Assembly (NCBI GenBank): GCA_022865275.1
Contig: JALIDQ010000001.1
Span: 1-51,141, forward strand
Reading direction: 5' to 3'
DNA length: 51,141 nt
DNA from: Candidatus Nanohalarchaeota archaeon QJJ-9
GTDB taxonomy: Archaea > Nanohalarchaeota > Nanosalinia > Nanosalinales > Nanoanaerosalinaceae
The notes below the pieces were generated by a model, which saw nothing but the letters and a program-made list of their open reading frames with translations, searched no databases and had not been told where the DNA came from. The translations under genes and the position numbers were made by a program. Below are positions 2,947-41,220 of this stretch, one piece after another (position 1 is the stretch's first letter; the number at the start of each line of letters is the position of its first letter).

Positions 2947-3109
2947 TGGACTCGCGGGGATTTGAACCCCGGGCCTCTTCCAATTTGGCTCTTGGTTCGG
3001 ACACGAACCTCGTGTCGAAGATCAAAGATCTTCTCCAACCGTTTTCCCTCAAAGATTCGGAAAAACGGTGTTGCCAAGGAAGCGTTCTGCCAAGCTGAAC
3101 TACGAGCCC
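2947..3109 (-). tRNA. tRNA-Ala (anticodon GGC) with 89-nt intron
   Basis: GGGCTCG-TA-GTTC-AGCTTGGCA-GAAC-G-CTTCC-TTGGCAA [intron 2982-3070] GGAAG-AGGCC-CGGGG-TTCAAAT-CCCCG-CGAGTCC-A. The G3:U70 alanine identity pair is present. Mature length 74 nt. Confidence 0.85.
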
Positions 3110-4649: not shown

Positions 4650-4834
4650 TGGACCCTCCGGGGTTCGAACCCGGGACCGCCGCCTATCTCACGACTGGCG
4701 TCCCAGTCGGCAGGACGGTCGCGTTCAAGGGAACGCTCCGACGCTCCGCGGCTGGTATGTTTCGCGCCACTTCTGAGTATATGGGCGCGATGTCCGTATA
4801 AGGACGGTGCTCTAACCAACTGAGCTAAGGGTCC
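4650..4834 (-). tRNA. tRNA-Ile (anticodon UAU) with 111-nt intron at 37/38
   Basis: GGACCCT-TA-GCTC-AGTTGGTTA-GAGC-A-CCGTC-CTTATA [intron 4686-4796] A-GGCGG-CGGTC-CCGGG-TTCGAAC-CCCGG-AGGGTCC-A. Loop CTTA can pair with intron-terminal TGAG, flanked by 3-nt bulges (bulge-helix-bulge-like). Confidence 0.7.
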
Positions 4835-25281: not shown

Positions 25282-25408
25282 GCCCCGTTAGCTCAGCTGG
25301 GAGAGCACGTCCTTGGTATCTCAGGACACACTCCGAACCCGATGCCAACGCGAGTTGAGTCTGAGAACAGAAAGGACGAGGTCCCGGGTTCGAATCTCGG
25401 ACGGGGCT
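25282..25408 (+). tRNA. tRNA-Thr (anticodon GGU) with 54-nt intron
   Basis: GCCCCGT-TA-GCTC-AGCTGGGA-GAGC-A-CGTCC-TTGGTA [intron 25319-25372] A-GGACG-AGGTC-CCGGG-TTCGAAT-CTCGG-ACGGGGC-T. Confidence 0.85.
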
Positions 25409-34543: not shown

Positions 34544-34810
34544 TCACTCGTAAGCGTTATCCCTCTTCATTACGGCAAGTACTTGTATCTCCTTACTATC
34601 CTGTTCAAGGTCTATGAACACTCGGTAGTCTCCTACTCGCAGCCTATAGACCTTCTCCGTATCTATCCACTTTAGAAAGTATTCAGGAGATATGTTCTTA
34701 GACTTCATCCTGATTTCCCTAAGCTTGTTTCTAATTCTCTTCTGAACAGATTCTTCTATACTATCCAAATCGTCTCGTGCTGTAGGAGATAAAACCACTT
34801 TCCATTGCAT
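34544..34810 (-). CDS. relE: RelE/ParE-family type II toxin
   Basis: 88 aa with YRLRVGDYRVFIDL...ILAVMKRDNAYE, a typical RelE/ParE C-terminal pattern; 4 nt downstream of the RHH gene. Confidence 0.75.
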   Translation of the reverse strand: MQWKVVLSPTARDDLDSIEESVQKRIRNKLREIRMKSKNISPEYFLKWIDTEKVYRLRVGDYRVFIDLEQDSKEIQVLAVMKRDNAYE

Positions 34811-34814
34811 TTAT

Positions 34815-35027
34815 CTAGCCTAGTTCTTCTCCCTTAGCCTTCTCTATTTCCTTCCTCGCATTCTTTATCTTTTCCTTTGCCTGCTCTGTAAGTTCTGGCT
34901 CAAGCTCTTTCCTCACAAGGTCTCTGAGCAGTTCTCCTTTGGATGTATAACCTTTCTCCTCTACAAGCTTTTCTATCATCTTCACCTGCTTTTCCGGGGC
35001 TTTGAACGATACGGTCTTGGTCGCCAT
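34815..35027 (-). CDS. Ribbon-helix-helix (CopG-like) antitoxin
   Basis: KTVSFKAPEKQVKMIEKLVEEKGYTSKGELLRDLV beta-strand/helix pattern of RHH proteins; 70 aa. Confidence 0.7.
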   Translation of the reverse strand: MATKTVSFKAPEKQVKMIEKLVEEKGYTSKGELLRDLVRKELEPELTEQAKEKIKNARKEIEKAKGEELG

Positions 35028-36142: not shown

Positions 36143-36166
36143 CGCTTAACTCTTTGCTTTCTGGTT

Positions 36167-36319
36167 TTAAATTTCTGTTTTCCCAGCTACCATAGCCTCT
36201 TCCATTTCTGCCAGCTTGTCTTGGAAGCATCTCTGACAGAGTTTTTGGCCTCCTCCTGCTTCTTCTGTGTTTAGGACGAGCTGTTTGTCTGTTTTTTCAC
36301 CGCATTTTTCGCATCGCAT
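36167..36319 (-). CDS. Small zinc-ribbon protein (50 aa), below the track cutoff
   Basis: MRCEKCGEKTDKQLVLNTEEAGGGQKLCQRCFQDKLAEMEEAMVAGKTEI: two CxxC pairs, with GGAGGT about 8 nt upstream of the ATG (36319). The overlapping track ORF 36003-36230 is in another frame and looks non-coding. Confidence 0.45.
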   Translation of the reverse strand: MRCEKCGEKTDKQLVLNTEEAGGGQKLCQRCFQDKLAEMEEAMVAGKTEI

Positions 36320-36321
36320 TG

Positions 36322-36635
36322 TTTAAGACCTCCGAAGCCCGCCTGCCTGGGTCGAACAGGCATCTCCGGGTTTAACTGGTGTGTTGCCTGGACGCTTGCG
36401 GGGGATTTTAGAAGTAGTAGACTGCGTCCTTTTACACTAAGGCGGGTTGAGTTAGAAGGTTTCGTCCACCTTTCCACCCACCTGGCTTATTTCCTGGCGG
36501 GTTTCGAGGAGAACTACTCCTCAGAATTATCTCCACATGATATCTGTGGAGTAGAAGTGTAGCTTTGTGACTAGGCCGATCTTTTCTCCGCTATTGTCCG
36601 AAGGCCCAGTCGCATTTATCATTTTGACCAACGCA
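36322..36635. ncRNA. Unassigned structured non-coding region (candidate RNA gene; identity and strand unresolved)
   Basis: About 310 nt without a credible ORF and visibly more GC-rich than neighbouring spacers. Several perfect hairpins (CTCCACA-N7-TGTGGAG, GAGGAG-N5-CTCCTC, GGACGC...GCGTCC). On the minus strand there is a tRNA-like T-arm plus acceptor (GCCTG-TTCGACC-CAGGC-AGGCGGG, pairing with upstream CCCGCCT). A TTTTTAAAT box sits at 36654-36662 on the minus strand. Confidence 0.3.
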
Positions 36636-36739
36636 CAACTCTGTCTCGCTGTGATTTAAAAAGTTTTCTGTTGGTGATATCTTTTTTAAGCGTTCGTTTC
36701 TAGTTTGTTTTAGAGGTTCTGAGCTGAGAGTCTGTGAAT

Positions 36740-36812
36740 GGCGGGTTGGTGTAGTGGCCTATCATCGCTGCCTTGGGCGCAGTGGACCCCGGTTCAAATC
36801 CGGGACCTGCCA
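36740..36812 (+). tRNA. tRNA-Pro (anticodon UGG), intronless
   Basis: Acceptor GGCGGGT/ACCTGCC, anticodon arm GCTGC-CTTGGGC-GCAGT, T-arm CCCGG-TTCAAAT-CCGGG, discriminator A; 73 nt. Confidence 0.85.
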
Positions 36813-36817
36813 CTATG

Positions 36818-41115: not shown

Positions 41116-41220
41116 CCCTCCTTAGCTCAGCCTGGCAGAGCGTCCGCCTGTAGCACCAGCCGGATGCTATCCACTGTTTCAGCCAGCGGATCGTCCCCCG
41201 TTCAAATCGGGGAGGAGGGA
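41116..41220 (+). tRNA. tRNA-Tyr (anticodon GUA) with 31-nt intron
   Basis: CCCTCCT-TA-GCTC-AGCCTGGCA-GAGC-G-TCCGC-CTGTAG [intron 41154-41184] A-GCGGA-TCGTC-CCCCG-TTCAAAT-CGGGG-AGGAGGG-A. Has the C1:G72 pair characteristic of archaeal tRNA-Tyr. Confidence 0.9.

Follow-up and report, generated by a model that had tools for sequence, protein, structure and literature searches.

The window, the whole 51,141-nt stretch of DNA analysed here, is contig C11 of a 625 kb genome (G000; 34 contigs, 88% complete). Its minus strand carries, in order, a TATA-like box, a small open reading frame (sORF1), a long irregular hairpin (element X), a tRNA-like RNA, a Shine-Dalgarno motif and a second small open reading frame that encodes a zinc ribbon (sORF2); nucS comes after sORF2. 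The same order from TATA-like box to zinc-ribbon ORF occurs in genera g1 and g5 and at copy 2 of the element in genome G005. The sequence-only reading had proposed that 36322-36635 is one unassigned RNA gene of about 310 nt. The GC content of 36250-36500 is 0.50-0.57 compared with 0.36-0.45 in the flanking sequence, in agreement with its description of a region richer in GC than the neighbouring spacers, and the helices that it quoted are all present (CTCCACA/TGTGGAG at 36531-36551, GAGGAG/CTCCTC at 36504-36520 and GGACGC/GCGTCC at 36390-36429). Folding of the whole spacer against shuffled sequences resulted in z = -3.0 for the minus strand and z = -1.6 for the plus strand. A covariance-model search of 36150-36760 against Rfam, which that reading had named as a check, returned no match even at E<=10. 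The region is structured and has no Rfam family, but it is a composite of parts and not one RNA: a small ORF, a hairpin module and a tRNA-like RNA of about 110 nt, which would belong to the same transcription unit as the zinc-ribbon ORF. The five public runs with this stretch all consist of DNA contigs from hypersaline lake or brine metagenomes, and mapping five run contigs onto the stretch yields DNA variants only.

The putative promoter of the unit is a TATA-box-like motif, CTTTTTAAAT, read from the sequence at 36654-36663 (minus strand). The TATA motif is found 39-44 nt 5' of the sORF1 start codon in g5, in G005 copy 2 and in the window. The box is nearly palindromic (ATTTAAAAAG/CTTTTTAAAT) and sits between the minus-strand unit and a divergent tRNA-Pro gene (36740-36813, plus strand). 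Another T-rich box, at about 36682-36691, has a more suitable position for the tRNA-Pro gene.

The first small ORF, sORF1 (36527-36622, minus strand), is predicted to encode 31 amino acids (MINATG...DIMWR) from an ATG at 36622, with an in-frame TTG at 36631. Counterparts of 30-35 aa occur at the same position in the four genomes of g5 and in g2, giving three genera with the window, and share a C-terminus of the form NIVWG, NIMWR or DIMWR. The differences between G004 and G007 or G008 at the first, second and third codon positions are 7/6/16 and 7/5/16, an excess at third positions. Given the conserved length, the start spacing and the third-position changes, sORF1 appears to be coding, contrary to the earlier claim that no credible ORF exists here. 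The same reading rightly set aside the 68-aa ORF at 36271-36477, which is not conserved and overlaps the tRNA-like RNA. A search of Pfam and NCBIfam with sORF1 matched no family. The hairpin CUCCACA-GAUAUCA-UGUGGAG (36531-36551, minus strand) lies within the 3' end of sORF1 and spans the conserved Trp codon, and both g5 and G005 copy 2 have an equivalent CCAC...GUGG hairpin; therefore, constraint on the RNA and on the coding sequence may overlap here.

Element X is a long irregular hairpin at 36447-36521 (minus strand) which was aligned in eight sequences from three genera. It is bracketed by AGUAG (36514-36518) and GGACGAA (36461-36467). The alignment shows little or no variation in AGUAG and GGNCG-AA, and double changes occur in 5 of the 14 consensus pairs. 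With a flanking G-C pair the element fits an AGUA/GAA consensus, suggesting a module like the loop-E or bulged-G type. It ends 8-30 nt before the 5' end of the tRNA-like RNA.

The tRNA-like RNA occupies 36337-36446 on the minus strand, as determined from the sequence, the fold, the covariance models and covariation, and scores 117 bits with covariance model R1 and 102 bits with R2. The T arm, the acceptor strand (together 36338-36361) and the partner strand CCCGCCT had been correctly recognized in the sequence-only reading. The acceptor stem has 7 bp (36440-36446, CCCGCCT, paired with 36338-36344), and the D stem pairs 36434-36437 with 36381-36384. The D loop contains an insert of 42 nt (36390-36431) with the hairpin GGACGC/GCGUCC. 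A short third arm (36366-36379) is followed by a 4-nt variable loop, AGAU (36362-36365), the T arm (36345-36361; T loop UUCGACC) and a discriminator C at 36337. The body also has U8 and G18G19, and the molecule of about 110 nt combines a 12-bp helix of acceptor and T arm, a D-loop/T-loop elbow and a free discriminator. Across genera the conserved parts are the acceptor stem, U8, a purine at 9, the short hairpin, the 4-nt variable loop and a T arm with UUCGA. The D arm follows the pattern GUGU-AA, an insert of 0-66 nt, and NGGNA-ACAC-A, which gives A14, G18G19 and A21. The most conserved segment across genera is the GGNAACACA block. Of the features of the tRNA family (RF00005), the acceptor stem, the D arm with G18G19 and the UUCRA T loop are present, with helices 100% paired in seven sequences.

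A DNA similarity search of 60 relatives gave a sole match of 27 nt, which is the T arm. This weak T-arm match and pattern searches led to G007 and G008, and a covariance model then led to G004, G009, G006, G005 (two copies) and G001. The search with a 21-nt pattern contributed G007 together with one chance match inside a coding region. Scans of metagenome and viral collections with the loose pattern GTGTAA-N35-65-GGNAACACNCC returned chance matches among those listed, and none of the retrieved loci, among the matches listed, passes a stricter tRNA-like filter. Outside family f1 the covariance models find weak matches only, none of them a member. The R1 match in G054 (24.6 bits) is the 5' end of a Kae1-like gene as judged by translation, and the R2 matches of 28-38 bits, found in family f3 and G010, correspond to ordinary tRNAs for Gln, Tyr and Asp. 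The element occurs in one Nanohaloarchaeota family, in three genera at least, and a fourth genus has an anticodon-less look-alike. This look-alike, in G006, a genome assigned to that family by binning, lacks the D-loop insert and lies within a 3-kb array of 15 tRNA-type genes with 61% GC (C51:1120-4198) which could be viral or plasmid DNA. A literature search found no description of this tRNA-like element, and Rfam likewise has no matching family.

Comparison of the homologues supports the fold, as the sequence-only reading had asked of compensatory changes in relatives. Standard pairs fill 98.6% of the 140 pair cells in seven sequences from four genera, and 11 of the 20 pairs have changed on both sides. 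None of 500 shuffles matches the observed values (0/500), and slid alignments are only 35-44% paired. The tertiary pair 15-48 also covaries, being A-U in g1 and g5 and G-C in G006. Several conserved pairs are G.U in some members and would be C.A on the opposite strand; therefore, the RNA is read from the minus strand. The strand had earlier been called unresolved because of one mismatch. A relative in an independent brine metagenome (run X4), 95% identical, has four differences within the tRNA-like RNA. Two affect paired sites, a change from G-C to G.U in the T stem and one from A.C to A-U in the short hairpin, and the latter removes the mismatch behind that doubt. The others are a change at unpaired position 26 and one base inserted in the loop of the D-loop insert, and all of these variants fit the tRNA-like fold. 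Between G007 and G008 the identity of sORF1, element X and the tRNA-like core is 93-100%, compared with 72-75% for the D-loop insert and 45-78% for unconstrained spacers, which suggests that the insert changes at close to a neutral rate.

These comparisons also bear on whether the element is a dead remnant, either a tRNA gene in decay or the scar of integrating elements at an attachment site. Against decay, covariation between genera extends to both acceptor strands, the D stem and the T stem, and the changes over the short distance to the X4 relative keep the structure. The position of the element is constant in a conserved gene order, and the 60-75% divergence of the homologues argues against recent transfer of one sequence. 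It is very unlikely that the element is such a relic.

RNase P RNA and SRP RNA had been suggested as candidates for the region, since its size suits either and neither appeared elsewhere in the window. The spacer has no match at E<=10 to the RF00373, RF02357-type or SRP (RF01857) models, and the SRP RNA of the genome is located at C1:5716-5985 (123 bits). The RNase P RNA of the genome is nowhere located; a search of all its contigs (88% complete) with RF00373 found none at E<=10. However, the g5 and g2 genomes have RNase P RNA at another locus besides the element, with scores of 160-174 bits in G004, G007, G008 and G009. Since both RNAs coexist in these relatives, the element is not RNase P RNA, and a divergent form of either RNA at this position can be dismissed almost entirely. 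In relatives of the same family the RNase P RNA scores 81-174 bits and has an unrelated gene context. The orthologue of the g5 gene beside RNase P RNA is at C14:4254-4946 in G000; upstream of this orthologue lies coding DNA without an RNase P match. The genome encodes RNase Z (C33:22408-23286; 325 bits) and the RNase P proteins Rpp29 (C22:9659-9904) and Rpp30 (C29:25378-26004). Because both proteins are present, the RNase P RNA probably sits in the unassembled 12% of the genome.

The third arm distinguishes the element from a tRNA. In g1, g4 and g5 it is only 12-14 nt long, with a stem of 4-5 bp and a loop of 4-6 nt without conserved sequence, and therefore it holds no anticodon. In G005 the arm is expanded by 40-57 nt and has no plausible anticodon loop. 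The anticodon arm expected of a tRNA, a 5-bp stem and a 7-nt loop with U33, the anticodon and a purine at 37, was not found in the element. The insert-free G006 copy scores 51.4 bits with the Rfam tRNA model (RF00005; gathering threshold 29 bits), shows a 4-nt loop where a tRNA has its 7-nt anticodon loop, and is labelled tRNA-??? by ARAGORN. The same model has no match to the window copy at E<=10, to G007 and G008 at E<=5, or to G005 copy 2 and G001 at E<=1. Pair 1-72 is C-G, A-U or G-C depending on the genus and discriminator 73 is C, A, U or G, so that no conserved charging identity is visible across the members at these positions. Since the acceptor end is not conserved, charging is unlikely.

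A real decoding tRNA could still be present if it were split by odd introns, as in other DPANN archaea. ARAGORN in intron mode reports a tRNA-Trp(CCA) at 36337-36446 with a 36-nt intron, many tRNAs in the genome carry introns (one of them in the D loop), and only 22-33 tRNA genes are detected genome-wide by Rfam and ARAGORN. However, the ARAGORN model requires a C.A mismatch and an 8-nt variable loop, receives no support from the homologues and places the cross-genus conserved GGNAACACA block within its intron. A brute-force search over single-intron models produced no better anticodon arm, and the statement in the sequence-only reading that a standard anticodon arm cannot be built is borne out: a 5-bp stem with a 7-nt loop is impossible in every homologue, including the insert-free G006 copy with its 4-nt loop. 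Our own scan of nine loci for bulge-helix-bulge motifs of strict form found none that recurs at the edges of the D-loop insert. As a control, the scan gave at least one candidate in each of the five intron-bearing tRNA genes of the window, and the expected splice sites fitted where checked. The genome also has a normal tRNA-Trp(CCA) with a 122-nt intron at C8:448-642. A decoding function for the element is thus highly improbable.

An anticodon-like second hairpin in the insert of g5 was also considered. It reads UUC for G007 and UUU for G008; G004, G009 and the window lack this hairpin, and it was rejected.

The tRNA genes of this genome are often broken by long or unusually sited introns. Five tRNA genes in the window have introns of about 20-112 nt: 1971-2064, 2947-3109 and 4650-4834 on the minus strand, and 25282-25408 and 41116-41220 on the plus strand. 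The intron is in the D loop in 1971-2064 and apparently displaced from 37/38 in 4650-4834. The intron of the tRNA-Trp(CCA) gene on C8 (448-642, minus strand) is at the canonical position and contains GAUGAU and CUGA motifs, like box C/D guide introns of tRNA-Trp genes in other archaea.

On its 3' side the tRNA-like RNA is followed closely by a translation start. The Shine-Dalgarno motif GGAGG (36329-36333, minus strand) lies 3 nt past the discriminator, and a similar motif is found 2-6 nt past the discriminator in all of the non-array family members (8/8), the distance being 3-6 nt in g1, g5 and G005 copy 2. The ORF which it precedes, sORF2 (36167-36319, minus strand), encodes a 50-aa zinc ribbon with two CxxC pairs, assigned to DUF7685 by a Pfam match (PF24734) of 30.8 bits compared with a cut-off of 27. 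Its similarity to the ORF at the same position in g5 is weak (30% identity), and word-based homologue searches with both zinc-ribbon ORFs returned only self or one near-identical protein. The X4-run relative has 7 nucleotide changes in sORF2, of which 4 are synonymous. The zinc-ribbon ORF is linked to the tRNA-like RNA in g1, g5 and G005 copy 2 and is missing or degenerate at G005 copy 1, G001 and G006. The paralogues at G005 copy 1 and G001 (L026 at about 1661-1690, and L053 on the minus strand just 3' of 1501) have a Shine-Dalgarno motif, a start codon and an immediate stop (AUG-UAG and AUG-UGA). The downstream ORF has decayed to a start-stop in these paralogues, yet the 3' end of the RNA still adjoins a ribosome-binding site. 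Elsewhere on the minus strand of the window (34544-35027) there are adjacent ORFs of 88 and 70 aa, which by their translations alone we take to resemble a RelE/ParE-type toxin and a ribbon-helix-helix antitoxin.

Another reading is a cis-acting translational switch, in which the pyrimidine-rich loop of the insert (CCUCC) would mask the motif of sORF2 until the RNA is cut or refolded. CCUCC is present in the insert loops of G004, G007, G008 and G005 copy 2, and no zinc-ribbon ORF lies downstream of the G006 copy, which is free of the insert. However, the inserts of the window and of G009 lack CCUCC, the insert shows the near-neutral identity of 72-75% between G007 and G008, and the duplex energies of insert and leader are not exceptional, with a fraction of 0.14-0.90 of shuffled inserts at least as good in 6/6 loci. 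A switch of this kind is therefore improbable.

The features required for end processing are kept and those required for decoding are lost; therefore, the tRNA-like RNA is most likely a t-element, a non-decoding tRNA-shaped RNA cut by RNase P and tRNase Z, although this assignment is tentative and held with slightly less than even confidence. The conserved features are those recognized by RNase P, tRNase Z and the CCA-adding enzyme, and the missing features those recognized by the ribosome and most synthetases. The element has a non-decoding tRNA-like fold and adjoins RNA whose end it would define, as expected of a t-element. We infer a single minus-strand transcript that would run from the promoter through sORF1, hairpin X, the tRNA-like RNA, the Shine-Dalgarno motif and sORF2, and then into nucS. 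Cleavage by RNase P at the 5' end of the tRNA-like RNA would leave an sORF1 message ending in hairpin X. Cleavage by tRNase Z past the discriminator would produce an sORF2 or sORF2-nucS message with a 5' end 2-6 nt before the ribosome-binding site. A stable tRNA-shaped RNA of about 110 nt would be released as a by-product, and these two cuts may affect the expression of the neighbouring genes.

A t-element of this kind has a precedent in Haloferax volcanii, in which a tRNA-like structure upstream of 5S rRNA is cut by RNase P and tRNase Z (Hoelzle et al. 2008 and 2012, as cited in PMC4326828). Both are archaeal, non-decoding and tRNA-shaped and lie beside RNA that needs end formation. In contrast to the Haloferax t-element, which belongs to an rRNA operon, the present candidate t-element is situated between two protein-coding mini-genes and has a full D arm, a D-loop hairpin insert of 0-66 nt and a preceding AGUA/GAA hairpin. 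The t-elements of plant mitochondria set mRNA 5' and 3' ends in polycistronic transcripts (Forner et al. 2007, PMC1920247). These are organellar, often mimic only the acceptor and T arm and have no sequence relation to this element.

Further tRNA-shaped RNAs were compared with the element. It resembles a canonical archaeal tRNA (RF00005) in its acceptor stem, D and T arms, variable loop and the pattern of its tertiary pairs; it differs in lacking a 7-nt anticodon loop, conserved identity elements and a bulge-helix-bulge at the insert. In the MALAT1 and MEN-beta transcripts, a cut by RNase P forms the upstream RNA's 3' end and frees a small tRNA-like RNA (mascRNA in the case of MALAT1). The element resembles mascRNA (RF01684), which is eukaryotic, in being a tRNA-like RNA with a reduced anticodon arm, and the RF01684 model has no match to the window element at E<=10. 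YrlA Y RNAs (RF02553) and the tRNA-like domain of tmRNA are also tRNA-shaped and non-decoding. An assignment to the YrlA/Y RNAs was rejected, with no PF05731 match in the genome (88% complete). An assignment to tmRNA was also rejected: no SmpB was found in the genome (88% complete), pair 3-70 is C-G or U-A and not G3.U70, and ARAGORN finds no tmRNA.

There are also observations that speak against the t-element. The search of this 88%-complete assembly gave no RNase P RNA, the partner of the proteins that would make the 5' cut. Most predicted tRNA-like structures of Haloferax were reportedly not cut in vitro. The G006 copy lies in an array of 15 tRNA genes, and the real tRNAs there could already serve as cut sites; therefore, a punctuation role alone does not account for its retention. 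The fully conserved D arm and the 15-48 pair exceed the needs of a processing signal, which hints at a possible role for the excised RNA itself.

The tRNA-shaped RNA could accordingly be a functional non-coding RNA that imitates tRNA, for example a scaffold or decoy, possibly acting with the two neighbouring mini-proteins, and cleavage would then serve maturation only. This is less likely than the t-element, though it retains appreciable weight. The whole tRNA core is kept, with D arm, G18G19 and the covarying 15-48 pair, which is more than a cut site requires. There are two copies in G005 and the anticodon-less copy inside the G006 tRNA array, the zinc-ribbon ORF is tied to the RNA in g1, g5 and G005 copy 2, and sORF1, element X and the core stand out from the unconstrained spacers in the G007 and G008 comparison (93-100% and 45-78% identity). 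However, a search of the genome (88% complete) for the partners Ro60/TROVE (PF05731) and SmpB (PF01668) gave no match. The varying acceptor end makes charging unlikely, and the loci of G005 copy 1, G001 and G006 have either no zinc-ribbon ORF or a degenerate one. A more specific proposal, somewhat less probable again, is that this Nanohaloarchaeota family makes a dedicated anticodon-less RNA from a conserved mini-operon, along with the 31-35-aa peptide, the DUF7685 zinc ribbon and the loop-E-type hairpin, and that the RNA and the two peptides form a small RNP or a tRNA decoy, which would be novel in archaea.

The t-element remains the preferred reading. Cutting signals of tRNA-like shape have been described from plant mitochondria, from long non-coding RNAs of mammals and from one archaeal site, that of Haloferax. 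If the t-element is confirmed, it would be a second independent archaeal case, with covariation across the genera of an uncultured, genome-reduced symbiont lineage. The locus also draws attention to two micro-proteins and a hairpin module which gene callers miss. Since the intron mode of ARAGORN reports a tRNA-Trp(CCA) here and the G006 copy is a tRNA according to Rfam, the tRNA inventories of DPANN archaea may be inflated or distorted. A genome of 0.6 Mb would, if the t-element is real, devote a non-decoding tRNA body to organising the expression of very small genes.
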